From positions 5,456,001 to 5,520,000 of the forward strand of contig CP075494.1 of the NCBI GenBank assembly GCA_021613535.1: a stretch of 64,000 nucleotides of DNA, in the 5' to 3' direction. Made by a program: the position numbers and the translations under genes. This DNA is from Adineta vaga. Lineage: Eukaryota > Animalia > Rotifera. The notes beneath the pieces are model-generated. The model was given only the letters and a program-made list of their open reading frames with translations. It ran no database searches and was not told where the DNA came from. This document shows positions 9,266-48,920 of the stretch, piece after piece; the stretch's first letter is position 1; the number at the start of each line of letters is the position of its first letter.

Positions 9266-10617
9266 ATGGCAGCAAGCGAATGCGAAAACTTACGCATCGG
9301 GCGCGAATATCTACAAAGTATCTCTTGGCCTTCCGATCTGCGTCAACAAGCACATGATCGATGTTATTGCAAGCGATGTTACCCATCTACACTTCCAGAT
9401 ACGCTTACAGTAGCTGGCTATAAATATGTTATTCCACGTGGATGGACTCGTTTTGCCGTGTCTGTCGACGAAGCATTCGCTAAACATCACAATGTATGGC
9501 ACACATGGCTTAATTGTTACCACGGAACGAGTATAGAAAATGCTAAATCTGCTGTTGTACATCGATAATTGCTTCTACCTTCAGATGTGACTTTGACAGG
9601 AAAAAAACTAGAAATACGTGAAGGACACATTCCAGGAGAGCACTATGTTTTTACCACTCCTTCAATTACTTACGCAGCCCTTGAATATTATGCTCATACA
9701 TATAAATTTGAATCCTCTCATAGTTCACGAAAGTATACGATTAAAGTAGTATTACAATGTAAACAAAAGGCAGACTCTTTTATTGTTCAGCCAGAGACAG
9801 TTGATGCTCGAGCAAAACAAATACAAATATGTCCTCACATTCGAAACGAAGAGTTAGAATGGAAAACACAAAATAGATCTGCTGTCATGATCTATGGAGT
9901 AATGCTCGAAATAAAACCATGCAATGAGAATGATAGACTTACTGAAGTAATATCAATCCTAGACCAGCCACCACTATTAAAGCGAACATGTGATGTAGCA
10001 CAATGTTCACTAGATACATCGACATATTCGGATGAAAGTTATCTCACTAAAAGGAAGGTAGCAATACTCATCATACTTATCTTATTCACTTTCCTACCAG
10101 TAGCTGCACTTGTTCTCAGTCAAATATACAAAACGGATTGTCCTATTCAACCACAGATTCCTTTTTGGTTATTTATCTTTGGAGTTGTGGGTGCCGGTAC
10201 TTTCCTTTTACTTTTCTTTATAGTAAAATCTATAATCGTTTATTCAACCAGAAAACATCCTTTTCTTTAGACTTTGATCACGTACAAATGTTGCTCTGAA
10301 AAATCAAAAATTGGACGAGGCATCGGTGTATTTCTTCTATGTTTATTAATATTATTCTTTCTTGCATGGCTAATAATGGTAAGACATATAAGATTTTCTA
10401 GTAATATTAATGCTATCTCGTTTCTTTTCTGATAGGGGAGTGTATGGGTATTTCCTCTGAAAGCGAAAGTTCAATTTGATTCGTCCAATACCGAAAACTA
10501 TTGTCGAGATATTCTATACATGTTCATTTTTGGACTACTACTTGCGCAGTATGCGTGCATTGCTCTCGTTGTTTGTACCGGAGTTGTTGCTGCTGTGTGC
10601 TTTAAATATCGTGATTA
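9266..10617 (+). CDS. NEURL4-type ADP-ribosyltransferase-like domain fused to TMEM272-like membrane domain; interrupted by in-frame TAA at 9566-9568 (possible pseudogene)
   Basis: CYCKRC..YVIPRGWTRF..W..CYHGTS, FTTPSITYA, VVLQC, ELEWKT resemble the NEURL4 C-terminal ART. CPIQPQIPFWLFIFG plus further TM helices across introns ~10223-10270 and ~10379-10435. ORFs 9266 and 9569 are in the same frame on either side of one TAA. Confidence 0.75.
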
Positions 10618-22889: not shown

Positions 22890-23173
22890 CGTCTAGTTAT
22901 ACTTTGATAAAATATTGATATATCTACGACAAAACGAGGAGAACATCAACATATATTTCTATATTTCTTTATGTAAGTGATTTAGTTGAAAGAAAGATAA
23001 GCACGTACCCATTATCATGTATATAACGACAACTAGTATTTTATATTCTTATATATCGAATAAAATAAGAAGATTCATTGAAACAAAGGAATATTTAATG
23101 TAATTTAATTACAAAAAACGTTATGGTTAAAAAAAATGTAGAAAAGTATCAATGAAAATCCAATGGTTTTGTT

Positions 23174-26100
23174 TTACAAAAACCACATATCATCAGAAAT
23201 TTTGGTATCCAACATCATTAGTTCTGTCTTGATATCATCAAGAGAATAATCTTCAGAATCCTCATTTTCTTCGCCAATACTAAAAATATCATCAATGAGA
23301 ACATTATCAATTATAGTGATATAATACCTTTCTGCATCTTCATCTTTACCATATCGAAGTGCTCGTGAAGCATAAGCTGCTAGATGAGCATAATGAACTG
23401 GAGCTGGGATGGAAACAGACTTTGTACAACGCATATCTGTATGACATAACTATAAAAAATACAATTGATATTAAAATTCTACCTAAATTTGTGTTACACT
23501 AAAGAAAAGAGCAAATCAACTCACCCAATAAGTAAGTTGTTGTATATCATCACTACTGAATTGGTTGTCATCATGAATAACATGATATAAAGCCGGTCGT
23601 GACGTACCCTTTCTAGAATGATCCAAATTATGAGAACAATCGAGAAAATATAAATACTAACATTGCTTTTTGTGAGCATAGATAAAAATCAAATTGAAAA
23701 GGATGTGTTATTTCTTGATCGATAACCGTGCCTGGTTCGACATTTAATGTTTGGTTATTATCATACAGAAAGAAACGTGTATTATGACGCTTTTTTACTA
23801 CAATAAAAGTCAATTGTGGAACTGATCCATTTGGATAAATTTCTAATATAGAAGAGAAAAAAAACGAAGTTATAAATGTATTTGCAAGATTTTCAAAACT
23901 TACGACGACAAATATTTTTAATTTCAGTAACTTCGTAATCGAGTACTTTTTGATATTGTCCATCATCAACACCATCCCGATAAAAGATAATTTTATTGGG
24001 AAAACGACCACCGTGACTATTAGCGAATATTTCGAGTAATTGTTTCACCATATTGCCTAATTCTTTGATAATTTCAACGGAACAACGACCTTTTTTGGGA
24101 TATTCTATGAATTAAAAAGTTGTTATCATAGACAAAGAAGTAAAATCAAAAATAAACATACGTTCACACAGTCGAGATGCATACAAACTGTTTGTTGCAT
24201 CTCGAGAACCAACAACTGCAGCAATGGAAGGACGATCTGTTGAGCAAGTTGAATGAGTTACCTGAACAAAAACAAATTCAAATGATGACAAGTCTTTTGT
24301 TTCAGTAATCTATCACTTACATCAGCTCCAAAAAACATGAAGAGATCTTCTCTGGAAGAGCGACTTAAAGCTGTTTTTATATTGACGACACCATTGATAC
24401 CGCCCAATTTTCCATTAATTTTTTGGCTAATATTTTCCGCATCTAGAAAAAAACAACAACCACCATATATTCATTCTTCGTACTCGAACAAAGTTTAATT
24501 CTTCTCTGTACACATAAAGAGTTTGCCAATATTTCTCTCTAAAGCTTGATAATTAACGCATTGAGTCATTAAACCAATGGATCGATTGGAATATTGTTTA
24601 ACATAGTCATAAACTCTGGCTGAATCAGAGCTTTTTAGAATAACAATAGCCAATTGCCATCGTTGCTCACTGGCTTTATCTAAAGCTTTCGTAATTTGAT
24701 TTTCTGATGTTCCTTCGATCGTTAATGATAAAGCACTATTAATGATGAAACCAGCTTTTTCAAGTAACTAAAATGAAATGAACACATAGATCGAAAAAAC
24801 TGTACTGAACATATAAAATCTTACGTTTGGAAATTGATTTTGAAATTCTCGTAGAACACCATTCGTATGTCCATCAGGTCTATCACCAAAATAGATTATA
24901 CCCCAACTATTAATAGGTGGTGTTGATAAAAACCAATTTTTGATTCGCCATTGACCACCGTGAACAGACTCCATTACTTCGCCTTGACCTCGACGACGAT
25001 ATTTTATGGTAGGTGGTGAGATAACTCGTGCTATACATAATCAAATATACATCTATCTATTACTATGAAAAGTGAACAATTACCTTTCAGTTTCAGCATC
25101 TCTTTGTCATGTACATGAATATTTAATTCTTTGAGATATCGATCTCTATCAAATTGATTATTGCGTACGATTTTCATAATTTCATCATAGCGTTGATCTG
25201 GTCTGAGAATACTATTTTTTGAAACAGAACCTCGTTGTACTTTATCCAATGGTCGTACTGCACGTTGCCATTCCACAATCTGAAATAAATTTTAAAAATT
25301 CGTTTTATTGTCAGACAGAAGAACTAATAAACTTACAGAGACTACTTCCATTGGTAACCAATTCGGTTTATTCAAATGTCCTTTCGTTCCATTAATACAA
25401 GGCAACGATGGATACATAAGTTTCCGATACTGTTTACCAAAGTAATCTGCGACGCTGATTTCTTCACCAACACTCGCACCTGCTGTCTCGTCATTATCGC
25501 CACGACGAAACATCAGTTGATTGGCAGGACGACCAAAATCATGAAATCGATAGAACAGCCTACGACCTGTATGCATTGTATCGACTAACCAAAACAAAAA
25601 AGAAGATTTCTGAAGATGAACAGCGGAGTATTCTTAACTTACTTTGTAAATTTCGAATATTTTTTGCCAAGACATCTAATTCATTCTTATGAATACCTCT
25701 AGTAATATCTCTTCGTAAATATTGAGTAGCAAAATCAACGAATTTATTTGGCATATAGAAGCATGTAAATGTCAGATTGATATTTATCGTCGGTCCATTT
25801 TGGGTCAAAAATAAAGCTTGATAAAATCCTTTGGCCATACCACGTCCATCACCTATGCATGAAAAGCATTATTTCAATGAATGATGGAACAAAAAAACTA
25901 AGAAACTAACCCATATCCTCGAGTTGTCGACGTCGATCATAGAATTGATTTCGAATAGCAATCAAATCATTTCGAGCACGCTGCTTAAACAATGTTTCAA
26001 TTATTCGAATAGTTTCTTGTGGTCGATGAGTCGTCTTCTGTCGGATATAATCATGTATGTTTTGAATGCGATTTTGTCCAACAAGATCACATTTGGTTAA

Positions 26101-26812
26101 TTGAAACACTTTCATATCATCACCTTTGCCTAATTTCACTTGTATAGGCAATTTTATTTCAGGCAACATGTCTTTCGTATATATCGTCTTTCCTTCATCA
26201 TACCTAAGAAACAAAACAAATCGGGTTCATTTTTATAAATGTTCAACTACAATATAATAAAGACTTACCATATAGTAGGAAAATCTTTTCTTTCTTTCAC
26301 TATCGTTTGTACAACTTCCCATCGATCATCTTTACGTGCTTCACAAGACTTGTTATTCCGAAAGATTATAATTATGTCAATATCGTATTGATAGACAGTC
26401 GCATCGTCAATATCGACACGAAAATGGTTAGAATATACATCTACCACTTGACCTTTTTGACCACCCCTATCAGGTCGATGAACCGGATTTAAATTTGCAG
26501 TATCAGGTACTGCTGAGCATAGGGTTCGACGAGAAGGTCGTTGATGAACGCTTTTAGAACGAGCATTTTTAGCAACTGTGGATGCCTCATTCACAGACAA
26601 ACTATTCATCGATTCAGTTAATGTTGGATATGCACTTGACGAACGTGTACTTGCTTGAAAAGTTTTAAATGAATTTTCATCAGTAGTTTTGGATGATGCA
26701 TCAACTCTTCCCACTGGTCGTAATTCACCTTTATCTAAATGACAAAACGATTATTTTCATTCAAAATGTGAAATTCTAGTATTTTACGTTTACGATAACC
26801 ACGTCCTGCCAT
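23174..26812 (-). CDS. ago: Argonaute (AGO-clade) protein, about 14 introns
   Basis: N domain (SNHF, YQYDIDI), ArgoL1 (GFYQAL), PAZ (SVADYF..YPSLPCI..WLPMEV), MID (MTQCV, KINGKLGGIN), PIWI (FFGADVTH, RDGV, VVKKRHNTRFF, GTSRP, SIPAPVHYAHLAA), C-terminal MWFL. Confidence 0.95.
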
Positions 26813-27843
26813 ATTTAGTTAAAAAGCGAATGTGACCCTTAATGAAATTTATGTGATTCAATATATGCATAAAAATAAACATATATATCATCTACCTTCG
26901 AGCAAAAACAAACAATTGTTCTTCGTTACAACAATGTACAACAAATTGTATATCTGAAATATCAAACTTTATTGATACTTATAATTAATATTAAATGTAA
27001 TCATCTCATCTTTCTCTGTCTTTATATAGGTTGCTCACTGGGAAAAAAACCAGTGTACAAAGCATACACTGAAAGCAGATGAGTCATTCTGTTGTAAAAA
27101 AAAACATTGCGAAAGAGTAGATGCAATTGTTATTCCGAAGAGAGAGAGAGAGAGTACTATTTTTTCCAGCTGGTAAATATTTTCATTAAACATAAAAAAG
27201 TTATTAAATTCGAAACCTTTTCGAGATATTACTATATCATTATCCAATCATCGAGGCATAACTTTTTTTTATTAATAATCGAACATCATATGTCTTGACA
27301 TTAAGAAATATTCTAATCTTGAACAATTGCCACACAATACATAGTCTTTCTCTCAGCTACTTAAAAATACTCATATTCTTATTGAAAGAAATGTAATACT
27401 ATGCTGTTTTTTTCTCTCATCATTTTGCGTGTTTATATCAAATGCATTAACTAATATCAACCATAACGCCCATACACTTATCACAATACATCGAATTTAA
27501 TTGTATTCCTATACTTAAAGAAAAGACTACAGATATCAACTAGTTAATATCATGCTTCTATTTTGGATTACCACCCACATGAGAGTGTGGTACTTGTTTC
27601 CTTAAAGCTACATACAATGAATGATTCATCGTTTTCTTCGTTCTGTTGACAATGCAGAACGAGAAATAGAGAAAAATACTCGCGTCATTTTTTTTCTTTC
27701 TTTCCTGTATATGCGTCATGCTTTTCTATGCGTGTTTTTTGCTACGTCATGCTCACAAATACACTATCAAAGTTGCCTATAAAAATGAACGTTTTTTGTT
27801 CAAGCATTCAGTCAAGCTTTGTTTATTTACATTTCAACGTACA

Positions 27844-28605
27844 ATGTCTTCACAAATCAAAATTAGTCGACGACCTTCAAATGAACGTGGACATGCTGAT
27901 CATGGTTGGTTAAAAAGTTTTCATACATGGTCATTCGCATCTTATCATGATCCACATTTTTCTCATCATGGTTGTCTTCGTGTTTTAAATGAAGATCGTG
28001 TTCAACCAACATCAGGTTTTGATACACATTCTCATCAAGAATATGAAATCTTTTCATATATTGTTGATGGTGAATTACAACATAAAGATTCTATGGGTAA
28101 TACAGAAATCATTCATCGTGGTGAAGTTCAATTTACATCAGCTGGCACTGGTATTCAACATTCAGAATATAATGTTAATAAATCTTTATGGGTTCATTTT
28201 ATTCAAATATGGGTGAAACCAAATCAATCCAAACTTCGACCATCTTATACAACAAAAAAATGGTCGGATAATGATAAACTCAATCGACTTTGTTTATTGA
28301 TTGATGATATTAAAAATATCAATAAGGATATAATTCCTATACATGCATCATTATCCATGTATGCTAGCATATTAGAACAAAATCAATCAATTGAACATCA
28401 ATTTCAAAGATCAAAAGGATATATTCATTTAATAATGCGAAGTGGATATAAAGTAAATAATGGGGCAAAACTTCGATTGGGAGATGGTACTATTTTAGAA
28501 GAAGGTGATGGTGCATTTATTACTTGTGACAAAAATCAAAGTAAATTAACAATTGAAAATATCGGATTAATTAATGCTGAATTTTTGTTATTTGATCTTG
28601 ATTAA
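27844..28605 (+). CDS. Pirin-like bicupin (YhhW/quercetin 2,3-dioxygenase type)
   Basis: RGHADHGWL.SFHTWSFA, LRVLNEDRV, GFDTHSH..EIFSY, HKDSMGN, SAGTGIQHSE, IQIW. Likely start MSSQ at 27844. Intronless. Confidence 0.92.
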   Translation: MSSQIKISRRPSNERGHADHGWLKSFHTWSFASYHDPHFSHHGCLRVLNEDRVQPTSGFDTHSHQEYEIFSYIVDGELQHKDSMGNTEIIHRGEVQFTSAGTGIQHSEYNVNKSLWVHFIQIWVKPNQSKLRPSYTTKKWSDNDKLNRLCLLIDDIKNINKDIIPIHASLSMYASILEQNQSIEHQFQRSKGYIHLIMRSGYKVNNGAKLRLGDGTILEEGDGAFITCDKNQSKLTIENIGLINAEFLLFDLD

Positions 28606-28855
28606 ATATTGCATTTTTTTCCTGTTTTTTGCATCTATTCTCACAATAAAATTCATCATACTGTTACTTATTCTATAAACATGTGACAAAAAAAATGTGT
28701 TCCGTCAAAAGAGCACCTGACTAAAACAAAAAAAAATAAGCTCTTTTTTCTCGTCATCGCACGGAATATAGTTGCACAACGACATCTTATTTTTCATGGA
28801 ACATGTAATCATAAAAATGAATAAAACAGATTTTATTCTAGATTGATCGTTTCAA

Positions 28856-29998
28856 ATGACGCTTCAGTTTCCTTCTCCGTATGATAAAATACTTCCTGAT
28901 AAAATAAAGATCGTTTTACCTTCATCCGATGCACTTAATTCTACTATTGTTAATCGTATTACTGGTTCTTTAATTGGTCTTGCAGTAGGCGATGCTCTTG
29001 GGGCTAGTGTTGAATTTCGTCCACGAGATTATCTTATCAAAAATCCCGTTGAAGATATGCAAACTGGTGGTACGTGGAATTTGAAGGCAGGTCAATGGAC
29101 GGATGATACCTCAATGGCACTATGTCTTGCATCATCTCTCATTACTCATAAAGGTTTTAATTCGTATGATCAAATGGTTCGTTATAAATGGTGGTATAAA
29201 CATGGTTATTTATCATCTACAGGACATTGTTTTGATATTGGTAATGCTACTCGTGCAGCATTAGAAGAATTTTATCGTCGTCAAAATGTTATGAAGAGAA
29301 GTAGGAAATTACATACTGATTTCGATGTTGATCAATTATCAATTGAAGTGATAAAAAAAGAAAAGTTTGATGTTAATTGTAGTCGGCCAGGTGTTGCTGG
29401 AAATGGAGCTCTAATGCGACTTGCTCCTGTGCCACTATTTTTCTATCAAGTACCTTCGCTTGCTATTGAATTATCTGGTCGAAGTGCACGCCTTACACAT
29501 GGTAATATATTAGCTATTGATGCCTGTCGTTATTATGGAGCTTTAATTGTTGCTGCTGTTCACGGTGAATCTAAGGAACAATTACTTAGTGATACATTTT
29601 ATGATGATCATAAATTATGGTTTGGTACAGAAACACTTCATTCAGATATAATGAGTATTGCAAATGGATCTTATAAACAATCAAAAGGTTACAAGGATGG
29701 AATTCGCGGAAAAGGTTTTGTTGTTTTTACACTTCAAGCAGCTTTATGGGCATTTTGGAGTACAGATTCATTTGAAAAAGGTGTTATCAATGCTGTTAAT
29801 TTAGGTGATGATACTGATACTACAGCCGCTATTTATGGACAATTAGCCGGCGCATATTATGGTTATAATAGTATTCCAGATAAATGGACGGATAAACTTT
29901 ATGCTCATCGATTTATTGAATGTATTGCTCAATGGTTACAAGTGTTAAGTTATTCAGAGACTACAGAAACTGCACATTCGCAATCCAACCAAGTCTAA
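28856..29998 (+). CDS. ADP-ribosylglycohydrolase (ARH/DraG family)
   Basis: AVGDALG, WTDDTSM, FDIG, GNGALMRLAP, LTH, GDDTDTTAAIYGQLAGA: the metal-binding motifs are intact. Confidence 0.95.
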   Translation: MTLQFPSPYDKILPDKIKIVLPSSDALNSTIVNRITGSLIGLAVGDALGASVEFRPRDYLIKNPVEDMQTGGTWNLKAGQWTDDTSMALCLASSLITHKGFNSYDQMVRYKWWYKHGYLSSTGHCFDIGNATRAALEEFYRRQNVMKRSRKLHTDFDVDQLSIEVIKKEKFDVNCSRPGVAGNGALMRLAPVPLFFYQVPSLAIELSGRSARLTHGNILAIDACRYYGALIVAAVHGESKEQLLSDTFYDDHKLWFGTETLHSDIMSIANGSYKQSKGYKDGIRGKGFVVFTLQAALWAFWSTDSFEKGVINAVNLGDDTDTTAAIYGQLAGAYYGYNSIPDKWTDKLYAHRFIECIAQWLQVLSYSETTETAHSQSNQV

Positions 29999-30459
29999 AA
30001 ACAAAGATACAAGCTAAACTATGAAATCAGCAATGAGCCTTTGCACAAGGACTTTTTAATTTTTTTGTAAATACGAAAAACTGGAAAATACAAACTATTA
30101 TAATGGCGTCTCAAACAAAAAAAAACACACGATTATAAATAAGATCGGTCGTTGTTTTTTAATTTTAAATATAGCAAACACAATTCTATACTTCCTACCA
30201 TAAAAAAAATGAATCCAATATTGATCGAGGATTGATGTTGTTACAAGAAATACTTTTTCTTCTCTGAAAAAGTGTGAGAAGAAGAAAAATCTTTTTACAG
30301 TTTATTTGCACAAAAAAGAAAGTACGTTGACAGTTTTGATTTTTAACAAAATAAAGGTAAGTTTTTATAGTCGCAAATGTCTGATTCAGAAGAGAGAAGT
30401 CTGGCAGTTGTTTTTACTATTTAATTCACAAGTTTCTGATTTAAATTATACTAGTAATC

Positions 30460-33400
30460 ATGGGTTGTTCCATTTCGAAAGCAGCTCAAACGACAGACTC
30501 GTCCATAGCCGTAATCAATCCTAATTATCCAATAAAAAGAATATCTACTTCTTCAGTACACAGTGATTTATCAACAAAAATAAGTAGCGTTTCAGTTCAA
30601 AAGGTCACTACATCCATTACTCGAGAGAATCAATCTGCTAGTCCTATACAAGATGCACAACAAGACAATACTGGAGATTATATTATACTATGGATTGATT
30701 CAAATTTCAATGAAACTAAAGACAAACATCAAGATTTACTCAATAAACTTCAATGTATAACTAGTTTAGTGTATCCATGTACGAATTCAAATGAATGTAT
30801 CACATACGTCAATAATTTTGAAACGAAGAAAATATTTCTGATCATATCTGACACTTCGGTTAAGACACTCATAACAGCTATTCATGACAAACCTCAAATT
30901 GAATATATTTATATATTAATTCATGGAAAAGAACAAAAATTAGAATCAATGGCTAAATTACGATTCTTCATCGATATGGAAAGTATTAGTAATAAAATCA
31001 AATCGGATATTAATCGAATGAATTTCACTCCAATTAGTATCGTATCTAAGACAACGAAATCAAAACATTCATCAAGTGATCTCGATCCATCATTTATCTA
31101 TACATTGTTGTTGAAAGAAATTCTTCTAGAAACTGAATACAATGAGAACGCAAAAAATGAATTTGTTGAATATTGCCGTCAGAAATTTCATGAAGAACAA
31201 GATCACAAACAATTGGCTTCTTTAGATGAATTTGATAAGGAATATCATCATGATATCGCTATTCGTTGGTATACAAAAGATTGTTTTCTTTATCTAATAT
31301 TAAATGCAGCACTTCGCAATCAAGATGTGGAGAAAATCATGAAATTAGGATTTTTTGTACGCGATCTTCATGAACAGATAACAACATTATATGAAGAGCA
31401 ACGAACAAAATCAGCGCCACCAGAAATGCTTTATCGAGGTCAGGCTTTATCATACGATGTACTCGAGAAACTACAGAAGAATTCCGGAGGTCTTTTCTCG
31501 TTCAATAGTTTCCTTTCTACAAGTATTAGTCTTGTTAAATCGCAAGATTTTGCAGCTCGAGTAAATTGTACGAAACAGGATGTTCGAATTTGTTTTAAAA
31601 TAGAAGTCGATCCATCGATAACAACAGTTCCATTTGCTAACATCGAAGAAAACAGTGAATTCAAACATGAAAAAGAATTTCTTTTTTCTATGCATACTAT
31701 TTTTCGTATCAAAACTGTTGAAAAAATTTCACCAGAAACATGGCATGTCAATCTAGTTTTGGTTGATGGTAATGATTCACAAGTGAAGAAATTGATAGAT
31801 TATTTTCGGAAAGAAATTGCTGGAAAGACGTCTTGGGAACGATTGGGACAATTAATGCTTCAAATGGGTGAATTGGACCATGCAGAAAAAATCTTTCAAC
31901 CTCAACTGAATGGTAACGACGATCAAGAACAGTACGATCCAGCTCATATTCATCATCAACTTGGATTTATCTATAATGAACGTGGTGAATATCAAAGGGC
32001 GCTTGATTCCTATAGAAAAACATTAGAAATTCGACTACAATCTGATCATTCGGACGATCCAATACTCGTACCGACTTACAATAATATTGCTGCAGTACAT
32101 AAGTCAATGGGTAATCATTCATTGGCACTCACATCCTATGAACAAGTATTGAATATTGTCAGAAATTCTCAACCTTGTGATCATTATCTACTAGCTGTGA
32201 CTTATAATAATCTCGGAAATGTGTATAATTCAATGGGTAATTATTCAACTGCATTAGACTTTTTCGAAAAATCTCTTCATCTACGTGAAAAATATCTTCC
32301 ATCCAATCATCCTGATATAGGTGCCATCCATAATAATATAGGTGCAGTTTATACTTCTATGGAAAGATATCCCGAAGCACTCCTGAACTATGATAAAGCA
32401 CTAGAAATTCAAAAGATATCTCTTTCATCGAATCATCCAGCTATAGCTACTACTTATATGAACAAAGGATCAGTATACAATTCCATGGGAGATCATGAGC
32501 GTGCACTTTCCAATTACAAAGACGCTTTAGAAATTCAACGTAAATCATCACAAACAAATCATCCAGATCGTGCTTTAAATTACAACAACATTGGTTCTGT
32601 TTATTTAGCTATGAGAGAGTATTCAACTGCATTATCATACTATCAAGACGCGTTAAAAATTCAAAAGGAATTGTATAATGAAAATCATCCAATATGTGCA
32701 CTCACTTACAGTAATCTTGGTTCAGCCTATAGTTCATTAAAAAACAAAGAAGAAGCTCTTACATATCACAAGAAGGCATTTGAAATTCAACAAAAATCTC
32801 TTTCTACTGATCATCCGACGTTGGCTAATACGTGTAACAATCTTGGTACAGCTTATAGTAATATGGGTAATGCAGAGAAAGCTTTACCATTATTTCAGCA
32901 AGCACTTTCAATTCAACAGAAATCTCTTCTATCAAATCATTCCAGTCTAGCAATAACTTATAATAATATTGGACTCGCTAATCATTTTATAGGAAACAAT
33001 ACTGAAGCGCAACAATACTGTGAAAAAGCGCTCACTCTTCAACGTAGTTCTCTTCCAAAAAATCATCCATCATTAGCTATAACATACAACAATATTGCTA
33101 CGATCTATAATTCAGACAATAATCATGAGAAAGCATTATCATTTTATCAAAGTGCAATGGAAATTCAACAAAATTCTCTACCAACTGATCATCCAGATTT
33201 AGCTGCTACTTACAACAGTATTGCATCACTCTATCATGAAGTCAATGAATATTCAGATGCTCTAACATATTATGAAAAAGCACTTGAAATTGAAAAAAAA
33301 TTCCTTCCCGAAAACCATGAAGACTTAGATGTTATGTATCATAATATTGCATCGATATATTATGAACAAAAAGATTATTCGAGAGCACTTTGTAATTATA

Positions 33401-34383
33401 AAAAATCGTGCGAAATTAGAGAACAAATTCTCTCACCCAATGATCTTCAACTTGCTTCAATTTATAGTGAAATTGCTCTGATATACAATGCACTGAAAGA
33501 CTATGAAAATGAAATTGTTTTTCATCAAAAAGCTCTAGAAGTTCGTAAAAAATCTCCTTCCACGGATCCGTCATGTTTGGCCACTAATTACGCTAAATTA
33601 GCAGTTGCATACGATAAAAACAAAGATCCTAATAATGCACTTGCCTTTCACGAGAAAGCACTGGAAATTCGAGAGAAAATTCTTCCTCCTAACGATTCAT
33701 TATTGGCGAATACATACAGTAATATCGCATCGACATATTACTCATTGAAAAGATATTTAGAAGCCATCGATTTTCGTCAAAAAACAATCACAATAATCCA
33801 AACACAAACATCCCCAGGTAACGAACGAACTTTAGCCGACAACTATAGTAACGTTGCATCAGCATTTCATGAGTTAAAAGATCATCTCAAAGCGGCGGAT
33901 TTCTATCGAAAAGCAGCAGAAATAAAAGAAAAAATGCTCAATGAAGATGATCCAGTATTAGGAAACGCCTTTACAAGTGTTGCTGTTGCCTACAAATCTG
34001 CAGGCAATCAGCAAGAGGCTCTGCCATTTTATGAGAAAGCACTTGCTGTTCAAAACCGAATATTACCTGTTAATAATCAAGCATTAAATAGTCTGTATAC
34101 TATCATTGGTAGAATTCATCTATCATTAGGAAATACAACAAATGCAACTGAATACTTTGAAAAATCAATTGAAATTCAAGAATCATCATCTACACCGAAT
34201 CTATCGTCATTGGCTACGACATATTTTCATACAGCAATGACTTATGAAGCTTCAAAAGATTACGATACAGCACTCAAATATGCTGAACTTTCAGTAGATA
34301 AAGCTCGTCTCGCATTTGGACCTAATCATCCTGAAGTGAAAAGAAATGAAGAATTTGTCGATAGACTTCGTAAAAAGCAATGA
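30460..34383 (+). CDS. R-S-E clade ADP-ribosyltransferase + ~20 kinesin-light-chain-type (42-aa) TPR repeats
   Basis: WYTKD..LNAALR, LYRGQ, SFLSTS, HEKEFLF; repeats A.TYNNIG..Y..MG....AL..Y.KALEI......NHP; N-terminal MGCSIS. Confidence 0.92.
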   Translation: MGCSISKAAQTTDSSIAVINPNYPIKRISTSSVHSDLSTKISSVSVQKVTTSITRENQSASPIQDAQQDNTGDYIILWIDSNFNETKDKHQDLLNKLQCITSLVYPCTNSNECITYVNNFETKKIFLIISDTSVKTLITAIHDKPQIEYIYILIHGKEQKLESMAKLRFFIDMESISNKIKSDINRMNFTPISIVSKTTKSKHSSSDLDPSFIYTLLLKEILLETEYNENAKNEFVEYCRQKFHEEQDHKQLASLDEFDKEYHHDIAIRWYTKDCFLYLILNAALRNQDVEKIMKLGFFVRDLHEQITTLYEEQRTKSAPPEMLYRGQALSYDVLEKLQKNSGGLFSFNSFLSTSISLVKSQDFAARVNCTKQDVRICFKIEVDPSITTVPFANIEENSEFKHEKEFLFSMHTIFRIKTVEKISPETWHVNLVLVDGNDSQVKKLIDYFRKEIAGKTSWERLGQLMLQMGELDHAEKIFQPQLNGNDDQEQYDPAHIHHQLGFIYNERGEYQRALDSYRKTLEIRLQSDHSDDPILVPTYNNIAAVHKSMGNHSLALTSYEQVLNIVRNSQPCDHYLLAVTYNNLGNVYNSMGNYSTALDFFEKSLHLREKYLPSNHPDIGAIHNNIGAVYTSMERYPEALLNYDKALEIQKISLSSNHPAIATTYMNKGSVYNSMGDHERALSNYKDALEIQRKSSQTNHPDRALNYNNIGSVYLAMREYSTALSYYQDALKIQKELYNENHPICALTYSNLGSAYSSLKNKEEALTYHKKAFEIQQKSLSTDHPTLANTCNNLGTAYSNMGNAEKALPLFQQALSIQQKSLLSNHSSLAITYNNIGLANHFIGNNTEAQQYCEKALTLQRSSLPKNHPSLAITYNNIATIYNSDNNHEKALSFYQSAMEIQQNSLPTDHPDLAATYNSIASLYHEVNEYSDALTYYEKALEIEKKFLPENHEDLDVMYHNIASIYYEQKDYSRALCNYKKSCEIREQILSPNDLQLASIYSEIALIYNALKDYENEIVFHQKALEVRKKSPSTDPSCLATNYAKLAVAYDKNKDPNNALAFHEKALEIREKILPPNDSLLANTYSNIASTYYSLKRYLEAIDFRQKTITIIQTQTSPGNERTLADNYSNVASAFHELKDHLKAADFYRKAAEIKEKMLNEDDPVLGNAFTSVAVAYKSAGNQQEALPFYEKALAVQNRILPVNNQALNSLYTIIGRIHLSLGNTTNATEYFEKSIEIQESSSTPNLSSLATTYFHTAMTYEASKDYDTALKYAELSVDKARLAFGPNHPEVKRNEEFVDRLRKKQ

Positions 34384-34437
34384 GCTTGTAATTAAATTAT
34401 TCAAATTAAAAACAAAAGTACATAACAAAACATATTA

Positions 34438-35820
34438 TTAATAGCCTATACAACCGAGTGAATCAACTAAAGTACGAAAACGAGTCGATTTTTTTGATGG
34501 ATTTGAATCAAGATCAAAGTATTTCAAAGTCTTATTTTCATGACGAATGATATCGGTCAATAGTTTTACACCTCTCTTACTAATTTGATTATCAGCGAGA
34601 TATAATTGAGTGATATTCGTATTTGTTTTGAGCATTTCAGCTAAATATCGTACTCCTTGATCGGTGATATAATTTCTAGTTAGACTTAGTAGTTGAATCG
34701 AAGAAATATTTGATGTCAATGTTTGAGCTAAAATTTCAACGCTTAAATCATAGAGACCAGTTTCACGAAGATATAATTCTTTTAAACTGTAGTTGTTTGA
34801 CAAGGCAGTGACTAAGATTGACATACATTCAAGAGTAATATAATTATTATCTAATAAAAGTTTTCTGCATGCTTTGCCGATGATAGCATGTTGAGTAATG
34901 ATAGACATATCGTTCATAGTTAGATTTTGATACGTTAAATTCATTTCTCCATGATGTTGATGAAGATCAATGAGTCGTTTCAATCTAGGATTTGAATAAG
35001 CAGCTACATCTCTTTCGATCGTAGTAGTTACTGTTGATGATGGAACTGTTTTAGGTGGAATTGATGAACGATAACCACTGGACATATCGTAAAAATCAAT
35101 GAGTGGTAGTGATAGTTCGTATTCTTTTACTTGAATAATTTCTAGATCATTTCTTCGATCAAGATATCGAACAAATTGAAATTGTGTTGGAAGCAGAAGA
35201 TATTCATTTCGAGAAGGATCCGATGAATGTCGTTCGATAAATTTTGCATTTCGACATTCGAATGCAAAGACTGTTCTTGTTTTCGTATAGAACGTAGTCT
35301 GTTTAAATGATTGTGGTAGTTTAACAGATAGAGAGCAGAATGTGAAGTCCCAGAAGACAAGATAATTATCTCGTCGAATTTGTCGAGTTCGATCATGTTC
35401 AATTTCTTGATGAAAAGTAATTCTAGTCGATGGAAGACGATTCAAAGCAGTATATAATAAACTTAAATAGCATTTCCAGCGATTGAGTTGAGCATGATTT
35501 TGATCTCGAAGAGTCTTATTTAACACAAAATAAACACATTGATCATATGGTAGCGATCTCATCGAGAAAAGATAGATTGCAGCTGATTCGTCAGATGAAA
35601 GACCATCTGAAGGATTTTTACAGTTGTCTTTTGCTTGTGTTACTTTTTCGAGAATTTCTGGTAGAATTTCGACAAGTGGTTTCACCGCATTTTCTAATGA
35701 AATATCAGACGTTAGAAGTTCTACATCAATATGAAATGCCATATTTTGTGGTTCTTGAACAATATTTGTTGAATAAAATTTCTCATTTGATGTTACATTA
35801 TCAGTGTACACGTATGTCAT
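34438..35820 (-). CDS. Degenerate ART-like domain + RI-type leucine-rich repeats
   Basis: DGLSSDESAAIYLFSM..YFVLNKTLR..LLYTALNRLPS pre-ART helices; TVFAFEC..IERHS..EYLLLP; LRRs (LKELYLRETGL, IQLLSLTRNYITDQGVRYLAEML, ITQLYLADNQISKRG). Confidence 0.85.
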   Translation of the reverse strand: MTYVYTDNVTSNEKFYSTNIVQEPQNMAFHIDVELLTSDISLENAVKPLVEILPEILEKVTQAKDNCKNPSDGLSSDESAAIYLFSMRSLPYDQCVYFVLNKTLRDQNHAQLNRWKCYLSLLYTALNRLPSTRITFHQEIEHDRTRQIRRDNYLVFWDFTFCSLSVKLPQSFKQTTFYTKTRTVFAFECRNAKFIERHSSDPSRNEYLLLPTQFQFVRYLDRRNDLEIIQVKEYELSLPLIDFYDMSSGYRSSIPPKTVPSSTVTTTIERDVAAYSNPRLKRLIDLHQHHGEMNLTYQNLTMNDMSIITQHAIIGKACRKLLLDNNYITLECMSILVTALSNNYSLKELYLRETGLYDLSVEILAQTLTSNISSIQLLSLTRNYITDQGVRYLAEMLKTNTNITQLYLADNQISKRGVKLLTDIIRHENKTLKYFDLDSNPSKKSTRFRTLVDSLGCIGY

Positions 35821-44765: not shown

Positions 44766-45303
44766 TTTTTTTCTTTATAAACCAGTTGACTTCTTGTTAA
44801 GTAACGTTGTATTATTTGAGAAAGAAAAGAACTTTTTTGCCGTCTTTTATACACGCCAAAAAAGAATACGACGGAGAAGAAAAAAACGTCAACTGATGTT
44901 TTACGTCGTACGTAACTTCATACATGTATACACTTGAAGTTCAACGAGAACGAAAAAGTAAACTTAACCTAAATAAACATATCGAATGCTGTTCTCATGG
45001 TAAATATGAAAAACCTTCGATTTTATTTCGATACTGTCTCAAATCTGTTTCAAAAGAGTTTTAAATCAAATAACGTGTCAGTAATAAAATTTCCTTAATC
45101 TGACGTTTTTTTATCATATATTTAACGATTATATAAATTTATTGCAACATAACTCACATAGTTTATCATTTATTGTTTCTATTTTATGGGAGAATGATTT
45201 GAATGTCGTTGAATTGTGCGTCATTTTCGTCAAGTGAATTGTTCGGGGATAGATATATTAGTTTTTCTTTCACAGAAATAATAAAAAACTCGTGAAGTCA
45301 ACA

Positions 45304-48300
45304 ATGTCTACTGAAACAAGTCCGATTCTAACATTGATGGCATTGGGCCGAACGTTTTATCTTGGAATGCTCTATGATTTCAAAACTGATAAATCGATTC
45401 CTAATATTTCACTTTGGGATAATAGATTAATAGCAAATTATATTAAACGTTGGTCAGTACCATCGAGTAGTTATGAGATTCATGCTGAAGATACATTGAT
45501 AAAACGATTAGAATTCTTTAAAGCGGATTCCAATCTTAAACTAAGTATTCTAACGGGTCTCGTAGTATTAACGCATTCCGCGAAATTGATTGATGATCAT
45601 AAAACAACAGAACACATACGTCGTTATGTAGTGAAGTATTCTGTAACCACACAACAACATGAATTATCAACAAGTCATTTAAATATAAATAATTCCAAAT
45701 GTTCTCCGGTAATTGATGATCAGAATGCAACACATATTGTTACTGGAATTCTATATGGTGCCGACGTTTATTTTGTCTTTGATCGACCTGTGAAACTTGA
45801 TGAAAATCATGAGATTACAGATAGAATTGTTATTGAACTTTTGAGAAAAATGATAACAAATCGATTCTCTCGTAATAATGAATTGATATTAAAAGATGAT
45901 GAGAAAAAACTAACTGAAACATTAACATGTCGATATTATGGTGATTTAGATTTTATTTCACCTCCAACTACATTTGAGCAAGTTGCTCGATTATTTCGTC
46001 AAGTACCACAACTTCTTGACGATAATTCTATTCCAAAACAAGTATGGTTATATCCATTGTATCTATTCAATAAAATTGTTCTCGTTCATCGCACTTTTCC
46101 TCAAATTACATATCAACTAGTGACTAGAACAATTGAACTATTCGAAGAATTCTATCGACTTAAAATAAAAATAAATAACTTGAAGAACAGTATTCCACCA
46201 AATGCATTGCTTCGTCAAAGTGAATTATAATTACCAATCTACTATACTGCTATTTGTGATTTTGAAATCGAACTGAAGAAACAAATGAAGATCTTGTGGT
46301 TGGAAATTCGTCATGGGAATAGAAATGAAACAATCTTAACGGAGTTTTTAAACAATATGGATATGTATGCAACGAATAAGAAGAAAATCGACAATTGGAT
46401 TCAATTTATTACAGAAGGAATTCGAATTTTGATGAATTTTAACGTTTTGCTAGCAAAATCAGATAATATTTTTCCATCGAAATCATCAAGTTTTCAAGAA
46501 AATCAACCTCACATTTCTCGTTTCATTCTTCGATTAATTATTCATGTAACTGAAAAATATGATCCATTTTTAAATGAAATGTTTCAATATTTGATCGATA
46601 ACACCAATCATTACGTTAATACAAGTACAAAAATCAATTGTTGGTTCAGTCAAGATAATTTCACATCAATTCAGAATAAAATTATTCTATTCTCTGAATT
46701 TGCTCAAGAAAATAGAAAGAACGCTGATGTTCAATATTTCGTTGAAGAACAATACGCCGATGTATTTCATATGAATAAAGATGTGTCAATTATTCTTTAT
46801 CGAAACGGAATTATAACTAATTTTGAAATACCGAGTCGACCAGGTCAACCAAGAGCAACGAATATATCCGCTGATAATCTCACATTAACTTGGTTAAAAC
46901 CCATCTATGGAAGTCAAACCATTCAACAATACAAGGTTTATGGACAAATCGATGGCACTAATCGATGGGCATTACTTCACATAAGTGCAAATGATACACC
47001 ATGTACTGTTATTTCAAAGCTTCCAGAAGGAAAATATCGATTTAAAATAAAAGGAATTACAATAATTGGTGATACAACTGAAAGTGACCCAAGCGATATA
47101 GTCAGTGAGTGAATACATATATATATATCTTTATCTGTTTTTAACTTTCTATACATTCTTAGATACGACTATAGCCAAACCAATTTCAATTCCACTTCCT
47201 AGACCTGTAACATCGTTACCAATTGTGACTACTAATGAAATTACGAGAGAAAAAGCGATTCTTGATGTCATGCCTGCATGGTTCGACCAAGTTAAATCTG
47301 TACCACTAGAAAAAAATTCATCTACCATCTAATTATAACAAAAATTCACCTGTAGAAGTGCGTACCTACCAATGTTTAGCTAATTTTCGTTCTATGAATG
47401 AGAAAACACAAAATATCGATTTTGTTGCAAAACCATTCGAGGCTGATGTCGAAAATACTGAAACACTTGTCGTTGTTCTTAATGAACTTGTCACTCAACT
47501 TGGTGCTCGTCTTACTTTCACCAATTCGGAATTTACATATGACGACAGTGACTATCGAACTGCTTGTGGAGTAATCAATCTCGGTAGTATCCACACGTTT
47601 CTTGCTTCTGAAGGTCAATTTCAAACAGCAAAGTTCACTCTTCATCTCGATCTGGATTATGATCAACTGACAGCAACACCGGAAACATTGAAAAAGTTTG
47701 TTTTATCAAGTATTAATGATATTGCTTCAATTGCCGGATGTAACAAAGACTTTACTCGAGTATTTGATGTTTGTCGAACGACATCGATATTTCTGAATTT
47801 TGGAATTACCACGCCTGTTATTGAGGATACAAAAGAAGTAGCAGATGCATTAAAGAAGAGACTCAATGAAAATGCGACCCGTGAACATAATAACGTGTTT
47901 CAGTATTTGTATGCAGAAAAATATACTCATAAGCTGGAACCAGCACTTGCTTACTTACAGCTACAACAATCAGATTTAGATATTAAATTTAATCTAAAAT
48001 ACGATCATGCAGACGTACAGAAAAGAGGGGGTCTTCCGTATTATCTACCCAATGGATGGTATCGACATGCGTTAAGAGTAATCGACAAATATCCCGGAAA
48101 TAAATCATGGCTGGGTATGGATAATTCACCGGGTGAATGGGCTGTTGCATACCATGGTACAAACTGGAAAGCAGTAGAAAGTATTGTAGGTGATGGATTA
48201 ATACACAAAATAGTAACCACAGATGTATGTGCAGCTGAAGCTAAACGACAAAATTCTTCGATTCCCAATGTGAAAGGATTATATGTAGCAACACATTGTG

Positions 48301-48515
48301 ATGGTGGTGCTGCGCAGTATGCTCGATCGTTTCAAGTTCCCAATTCATCAGGTGGACACATCGATTATAAAATAGTATTTCAATGTCGGGTAGAACCAGG
48401 AAAGTTTATAGAACATAAAAGTCCGGTGAACGTCGGTATGGCATGGCGTGTGTTTGATGAGAAAGCTATTAGACCCTATGGATTATTACTCAAAGAACAG
48501 AAAGGATCAACATAA
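45304..48515 (+). pseudogene. Stonustoxin-like MACPF/CDC + FN3 + NEURL4/PARP-like ART fusion, copy 1 (in-frame TAA 46228, +1 frameshift ~47310-47316, intron 47105-47162)
   Basis: ALGRTFYLGMLYD, ATHIVTGILYGA, CRYYGD, PTTFEQ, VWLYPL; FN3 PSRPGQP..LTW..Y..YRFKI; ART YYLPNGWYR..W.VAYHGT..GLYVAT..FQCRV..IRPYGLL. Collinear with copy 2. Confidence 0.85.
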
Positions 48516-48920
48516 CTCTTATTTGTATCTGTTTTCGTTATTATCTAATTAGAATTAACCAAGAGAAGAAATATATGACTAGAATAAAACTGATGATATT
48601 CTTTAGAGAAATTTCTTAGAGGTATGGAAGATTGAAAGAAATGTGTCGTTGCCGATCTAAGTACTTATTCTTCTAAATACATCTAGTAGAGAGCCTCGAA
48701 AACATATTTTCTTTTTTAATTTATTGTCTCTTTCATAAACTATTTCTTATCAGCATACTTCGAGGAGCAGCAGTAGGATTGTTATCTAACCGTTTAGTAA
48801 AATATTTTATTCGATGAAAAACTGAAGAATTAAGAAAGTTTTTTCCAACTTACAACTATTACAGTCTTCTATATAATTCTATCTTGAATTAATATTTGTC
48901 CTGCAGTCGCAAATTTCAAA

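Follow-up and report, generated by a model that had tools for sequence, protein, structure and literature searches.

The closest described counterparts of the locus analysed here are bacterial pairs of an R-S-E ADP-ribosyltransferase (ART) and a DraG-like ADP-ribosylhydrolase (ARH) with intact acidic metal ligands, namely Tre1-Tri1 from the type VI secretion system of Serratia proteamaculans (6DRE/6DRH) and a pair from Listeria (8ZA7). In the DraT/DraG nitrogenase switch, too, an R-S-E writer ADP-ribosylates arginine and a DraG-type eraser reverses the modification (PMC8120803), while in the available part of another source the Imm-ARG proteins of bacterial polymorphic toxin systems are described as enzymatic immunity proteins tied to R-S-E ART toxins by strict gene linkage (PMC3482391). 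Vertebrate ecto-ARTs (ARTC/ART2.2) share the ART fold, and ARH1 and ARH3 belong to the same ARH superfamily. In animals, arginine ADP-ribosylation is known chiefly from a few cell-surface enzymes. The present study examined a window of 64,000 nucleotides from the bdelloid rotifer Adineta vaga (contig CP075494.1, positions 5,456,001 to 5,520,000), in which three genes lie side by side, each a single uninterrupted open reading frame (ORF): an ARH, an ART followed by tetratricopeptide repeats (ART-TPR), and an ART-like gene with leucine-rich repeats (ART-like-LRR, gene 3). ARH and ART-TPR are co-oriented and separated by 461 bp, and ART-TPR is convergent with gene 3 across 54 bp. An initial annotation had interpreted the trio as a clustered immune or toxin-antidote module; its coordinates, gaps, orientations and motifs were borne out by ORFs, Pfam and residue checks, and its interpretation as a whole is partly supported.

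Compared with Tre1-Tri1 and the Listeria pair, the rotifer genes belong to an animal host with no secretion system, and, relative to Tre1-Tri1, the pairing is many-to-many over large families, with writer and eraser joined in one chain in 25 proteins. Tri1 is described, in the portion of the source at hand (PMC8120803), as having an occluding N-terminal extension; this is unaligned in the rotifer ARH, which scores below the cut-offs of both the Tri1 and the DraG (TIGR02662) equivalogs; unlike DraT/DraG, the system has no nitrogenase target, and its writer bears receiver-fold and TPR domains. The strict gene linkage of Imm-ARG was not seen in the rotifer. In contrast to vertebrate ecto-ARTs, the rotifer writer begins with MGC, has no evident signal peptide and is likely cytosolic; human ARH3 aligned to the rotifer ARH over approximately 58 residues only (E 3e-17), and no ARH1 entry of the PDB matched it at E ≤ 0.001.

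On balance, the three genes probably belong to an arginine ADP-ribosylation network that is derived from bacteria and spans the genome, their shared location being incidental, a reading built on the genes, their motifs and folds, the family sizes, the fusions and the missing repeated adjacency. Bdelloids appear to hold hundreds of probably cytosolic R-S-ExE writers, bacterial-type erasers and writer-eraser fusions, which, if active, would represent a large case of toxin chemistry acquired horizontally and redeployed for signalling or defence in animals. The weight of this picture lies on the fusions and the family scale, and the order of the three genes informs it least.

Single-chain fusions and family scale

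Among the 240 ARH proteins listed, 25 carry an N-terminal ART of the family of gene 3, none is fused to an ART-TPR-type domain, and 215 lack an ART domain. The fusions derive from A. steineri, A. ricciae, R. socialis, R. magnacalcarata, R. sordida, R. sp. Silwood2 and one Logan record, and an annotated A. vaga fusion, FUN_001375, is one of seven ARHs among the 7,613 genes covered from a published table (PMC12220480). A 170-member cluster of the ESM Atlas has Rotifera as its commonest phylum; PF03747 is present in every member (100%), and 81% also have PF01129. As judged by a quick tree only, the two main rotifer ARH sub-clades both include fused ARHs. All fusions are gene models: the P0184 and P0160 types appear as a single protein in many records, and one family (P0130 type) is split at a predicted intron into two adjacent genes in some assemblies. 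Writer-eraser coupling thus exists at the family level, through the ART family of gene 3; in this form the writer-eraser link of the initial annotation stands, whereas as a dedicated cluster of ARH and ART-TPR it is not supported. Single-chain writer-eraser proteins have apparently not been described before: a literature search, with most subscription journals outside its coverage, found neither rotifer ART-ARH fusions nor the ART-TPR family described. Domain annotations are already present in databases, and A. vaga ART-like and TPR proteins are labelled as such in GenBank (BLAST labels).

The 30 fused ART domains comprise six with the full R-S-ExE, 12 with R-S-E but no ExE, and 12 lacking one of R, S or E. 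When 24 fusions were scored (P0128 being left out for its short ARH cover), a full R-S-ExE ART was found in all four with a degenerate ARH and was absent from 18 of the 20 with an intact ARH (Fisher p 0.0014, a value overstated as relatives are not independent). Two or three tandem ARTs precede one intact ARH in P0171, P0173, P0169 and P0170, none with a full ExE. Other ARH fusion partners are AIG1/GIMAP GTPase, caspase-like and SAM domains, architectures that would be typical of defence proteins.

Both families are large. The accessible part of PMC11258130 gives 431 arginine-specific ART (Arg-ART) and 58 ARH genes by Gene Ontology (GO) annotation among 66,273 in A. vaga, and 366 and 48, respectively, in A. 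ricciae. The complete R-S-ExE was retained in 49 of 52 aligned ART-TPR-type domains (a set that includes the window's own and one mis-assigned row), and in 54 of 73 ART domains among the 150 matches listed from a HMMER search with the ART-LRR. As far as the available part of PMC12220480 extends, A. vaga ART domains are co-annotated with ankyrin, WWE, RING/TRAF, UBC, NACHT-HEAT, VCBS, phosphatase and lectin domains, combinations that constitute a broad modular writer repertoire.

Predicted eraser, predicted writer and pseudo-enzyme

The description of the first gene as an intact DraG/ARH hydrolase holds: it belongs to the PF03747 superfamily (264.9 bits against a gathering threshold of 26.2; E 1.4e-78) and keeps all metal-binding residues (E53, T82-D83-D84, D127 and D319-D321-T322). 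Its closest PDB sequence match is 6DRE_A (E 1.5e-59), the immunity chain of Tre1-Tri1, and the top matches also include 8ZA7_A, the immunity chain of a second ART-ARH effector-immunity pair. Relatives in bacterial genomes are 41-50% identical. The rotifer ARH resembles Tri1 and DraG in fold and active site, yet it belongs to neither equivalog, because it scores 275.6 bits against NF041672 (Tri1, the best-scoring model; cut-off 490) and 157.3 bits against TIGR02662 (DraG; cut-off 337). Its alignment to 6DRE_A begins at Tri1 residue 67, and a different extension of 30 aa is conserved in rotifer ARHs. All named proteins among its 120 best relatives are from bdelloid rotifers (Adineta, Rotaria), and a tree placed it in a stand-alone clade of this bdelloid-expanded family. 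The nearest relative, from A. ricciae, is 76% identical and has two more ARH copies on the same contig.

Further ARH variants were observed alongside. Tandem copies are indicated in records of A. ricciae and A. steineri, and a metagenome contig (L002:157-2772) carries two ARHs in tandem that, judged by their motifs, are of differing sub-types. In a well-supported clade of bdelloid ARHs (P0088, P0096, P0102, P0107, P0108, P0110 and P0113), Asn replaces a metal-binding Asp, and the clade is likely a conserved pseudo-hydrolase group. A. vaga also has a separate animal-type ARH, FUN_004415.

ART-TPR, described from the outset as an R-S-ExE writer with about 20 TPRs, proved to be one by motifs, profile and fold. 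Pfam matched an ART at aa 235-432 (E 2e-7), the motifs are R326 (LYRG), S353-T-S and E404-K-E406, and the repeats occupy 852 aa in 42-residue units. A structure model of aa 63-467, with a predicted local distance difference test score (pLDDT) of 87, contains an ART domain that matches HopU1 (Z 14.1, root-mean-square deviation (rmsd) 3.5, 184 residues aligned), the toxin chains 6DRE_B (Z 12.8, rmsd 2.1, 149 aligned) and 8ZA7_B (Z 12.8-13.0 for the two chains), and vertebrate ART2.2 (Z 12.7). Since an ExE motif designates arginine as the acceptor of ADP-ribose, the enzyme presumably modifies arginine. Its best relative among the 49 matches listed is 43% identical, and PF01129 is annotated in 16 of these.

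Ahead of the ART domain, aa 72-186 adopt a receiver fold in the model, matching Spo0F (Z 12.0, rmsd 2.2, 107 aligned) and PorX (Z approximately 12), with rmsd 2.2-2.4 over 107-110 residues across the two comparisons. With the strand register set by eye, of 43 aligned sequences 26 have a serine (Ser130) where the phospho-Asp would be expected, 15 have an Asp at the next position, 131, and 42 have the conserved Lys166, a pattern suggesting that the domain is likely a pseudo-receiver. The MGC start, which we take to be a predicted myristoyl/palmitoyl anchor, is shared by both closest relatives; because of this start and the lack of an evident signal peptide on inspection of the sequence, the writer is likely cytosolic.

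Gene 3, for which Pfam reports LRRs only, was recognised as ART-like by a profile built in this analysis (E 2.6e-69) and by a model matching Vis, HopU1 and the 6DRE toxin chain, in agreement with its first description. The R, S and first E of the family are replaced by Q138, T160 and R204, the last E (E206) being retained, and the catalytic motif is hence incomplete. The same three residues are degenerate in its nearest relative, P0313 (54% identical), and between the two the ART part is 62-65% identical against 24% for the linker; the shared positions and the better conservation of the ART part support gene 3 as a conserved pseudo-enzyme. Both belong to a group of seven copies, all degenerate, that has a support of 0.886 and long branches, and gene 3 clusters with LRR-bearing ARTs, apart from those fused to ARHs. 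It may act as a decoy.

The network could operate as follows. ART-TPR would be anchored at the inner face of the membrane through its MGC start, with the TPR array and pseudo-receiver setting its choice of target and holding the enzyme off until a partner binds; once bound, it would place ADP-ribose on arginine of target proteins. Gating by TPR and LRR sensors, as the initial annotation also envisaged, is something that we infer. The ARH would strip Arg-ADP-ribose deposited by any of hundreds of writers, and, because it would act on the marks of any of them, self-protection would be pooled among writers instead of one-to-one. The ART-LRR, a pseudo-enzyme maintained by selection, would likely bind partners or NAD/ADP-ribose without modifying them.

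Probable chance adjacency and alternative explanations

The side-by-side position of the three genes is probably due to chance within an ART-rich stretch, since the family sizes and local ART clustering would yield it. In A. vaga, 0.75 ARHs are expected to have an ART neighbour by chance, or 2.3 on the assumption that two thirds of ARTs escape Pfam, a rate taken from the PF01129 annotation of the 49 ART-TPR matches listed. Gene order was assessed over the first 7,613 genes of the PMC12220480 table, the part available, with gene numbers assumed to follow chromosome order and 43 of 44 ART rows inspected (the missed row lies far from any ARH). Overall, 0.58% of these genes are ARTs, and the share reaches 3.0% in the first 531; pairs of ARTs no more than two genes apart number four, where 0.49 would be expected. 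None of the seven ARHs in this gene set stands directly beside a Pfam ART, and none of the six direct neighbours of three of them is annotated there as ART or TPR. A scan with a single protein found ART-TPR at none of three metagenome ARH loci, one of which lies beside F-box-like ORFs (labelled by eye) and one beside a second ARH, and rotifer-trained profiles, whose sensitivity is low, revealed no ART next to 160 ARH relatives (80 from bacteria, 80 from viruses). In the data covered, adjacency was therefore no higher than chance, the outcome that the initial annotation had itself named as refuting its interpretation; repeated above-chance linkage of ARH and ART-TPR, as in a toxin-antitoxin system, was not found in this small sample, and a dedicated, conserved cluster of the two is not supported. 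The equal length of the Logan contigs that carry P0046 and P0282 (4,183 bp each), noticed by eye, was considered as a sign of synteny and rejected, approximately 0.3 such matches being expected by a rough hand estimate.

Several observations weigh against an incidental locus within a network. Under independence the full triad would arise 0.005-0.046 times per genome and would be rare, ART clustering raising the figure. The A. vaga ARH FUN_000473 lies two genes from an ART-LRR pair (475/476), with a local chance of 13% in the part of the table covered, and at the metagenome locus L003 a broken ART-LRR lies about 2 kb from an ARH, the two being convergent. One DNA run (X7) shows depth lowered jointly over ARH and most of ART-TPR. 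The adjacency sample is small, comprising three short contigs and seven ARHs from roughly one quarter of a single genome, with ARTs only as detected by Pfam, and the search for ART-TPR homologues is incomplete, with 49 matches listed.

In run X7, depth falls to 5-7.5 over 28606-34336 against 17-18 on either flank. The low-depth block (28635-34315) comprises ARH and nearly the whole of ART-TPR; one flanking contig stops at 28634, the other begins at 34312, and the ends show 4 bp of microhomology (GCAT). No such drop over the two genes occurs in run X8, and the block has the appearance of a 5.7-kb deletion carried by part of one sample. An insertion origin was rejected, as the right end falls within the coding sequence of ART-TPR.

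The X7 block would suit a dedicated toxin-antidote pair in the manner of Tri1/Tre1, inherited as a unit, with the ARH protecting specifically against the adjoining ART-TPR. Such a pair, which we consider quite unlikely, would also agree with two intact, co-oriented genes 461 bp apart and with the respective matches of ARH and ART model to the immunity chains (6DRE_A, 8ZA7_A) and toxin chains (6DRE_B, 8ZA7_B) of the two known pairs. The block ends inside the ART-TPR coding sequence, however, and is missing from X8, as expected of a one-sample deletion and not of a mobile unit; no second neighbouring pair of ARH and ART-TPR was seen in the A. vaga gene set or the metagenome loci, no fusion of the two types occurs among the 240 ARH proteins listed, and the ARH lies far below the Tri1 cut-off (275.6 vs 490) with the N-terminal extension of Tri1 unaligned. 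It is likewise quite improbable that the ARH family chiefly defends against foreign ARTs of ingested or infecting bacteria, its tie to the host's own ARTs being secondary. This would fit the affinity of the family to bacterial ARHs (at most 50% identity; Tri1 model best), the 215 of 240 listed proteins without an ART domain, the AIG1/GIMAP GTPase, caspase-like and SAM fusions, and the proposal, in the available part of PMC9503650, that stand-alone bacterial ARG systems reverse viral ADP-ribosylation; yet ART-ARH fusions are present in both main rotifer ARH sub-clades, and hundreds of endogenous R-S-ExE writers require an eraser. We regard as very unlikely that ARH and gene 3 are a split ART-ARH fusion, with the inactive ART-LRR regulating or targeting the hydrolase and ART-TPR an unrelated intervener. 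All 25 fusions do carry the ART family of gene 3, 18 of the 24 scored combine an intact ARH with an ART lacking the full R-S-ExE, and the L003 and FUN_000473 loci bring ARHs near ART-LRRs, but gene 3 groups with LRR-bearing ARTs and not with fused ones, the window ARH belongs to the stand-alone clade, and the abundance of ART-LRRs makes proximity cheap.

A wider proposal, which seems unlikely, is that bdelloids domesticated a bacterial ART/ARH effector-immunity pair as an intracellular conflict-signalling system, with the locus as one co-regulated unit. It would comprise sensor-gated writers, Tri1-like erasers, conserved dead decoys and fusions that tend to be active in one half only, in which an active writer would be joined to a dead eraser serving as ADP-ribose reader, or the reverse; its scale would be hundreds of arginine writers and tens of Tri1-like erasers. 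An immune role of the locus, as first suggested, is hypothetical. During fungal infection, those horizontally acquired genes that were down-regulated showed enrichment of the Arg-ART GO term (A. vaga T7 FDR 4e-5 and T24 FDR 1e-12; A. ricciae T24 FDR 0.02; FDR, false discovery rate), which stood in no 'up' sheet of the same file, as far as the accessible material goes (PMC11258130). Down-regulation of the family in place of induction argues against a simple inducible antifungal role of Arg-ARTs, bacteria, viruses and the window locus lying outside those data. Around desiccation, ADP-ribosylation is named among over-expressed processes, with the enzyme class unspecified (PMC10809525). The supplementary material available from that study and file 13 of PMC11258130 yielded nothing further.

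Locus layout, transcripts and other genes in the window

The coordinates of the three genes and their domains are collected in Table 1. Transcription was indicated by contigs of five runs, which skip flanking introns or bear a poly(A) end and cover parts of all three genes; the RNA nature of the runs was judged from the skipped introns, and expression cannot be ranked by contig depth. The ARH may have a transcript of its own, as weakly hinted by ARH contigs that stop at 30125-30190 in five spliced runs from three studies. The 3' ends of ART-TPR and gene 3 probably overlap, because contigs of all five spliced runs bridge the gap between them.

Table 1. Features of the ARH, ART-TPR and ART-like-LRR genes (window coordinates).
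Feature	Position	Strand	Description
ARH	28856..29998	+	380 aa; PF03747; DraG/Tri1-like, metal-binding residues intact
ART-TPR	30460..34383	+	1307 aa; MGC start, receiver-fold domain, R-S-ExE ART, ~20 TPRs
Receiver (REC)-fold domain of ART-TPR	30673..31017	+	aa 72-186; model and alignment
R-S-E (cholera-toxin-class) ART domain of ART-TPR	31132..31797	+	R326, S353-T-S, E404-K-E406
TPR array of ART-TPR	31825..34380	+	~20 repeats of 42 aa
54-bp gap, convergent stops	34384..34437	.	crossed by contigs of five spliced runs
ART-like-LRR (gene 3)	35820..34438	-	460 aa; ART fold and five to six ribonuclease-inhibitor-type LRRs

About 2 kb from ARH, upstream of the trio, lies a spliced gene of the Argonaute/Piwi type (23078-26930, minus strand), for which contigs show at least 14 introns, and a pirin gene (27844-28605, plus strand) stands between the two.

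Up to five ART-fold genes are present in the window, NEURL4-like candidates included. At 9266-10267 (plus strand), a NEURL4-like ART-type ORF pair with the motifs YHGT, VFTTP and LQCK and a hydrophobic stretch at the end has no match in Pfam or NCBIfam. Two units stand in tandem at 45262-52155 (plus strand), with stonustoxin-type MACPF/helical/thioredoxin/FN3 domains (identified by Pfam on 48888-50744); behind each comes an ORF whose YHGT..VAT..QCR motifs we take to be NEURL4-type ART-like. One ARH, P0186, is fused to an SNTX-like and AIG1 protein; as such a scaffold carries an ARH there and is followed by ART-type ORFs in the window, writer and eraser domains may have been swapped on similar scaffolds.

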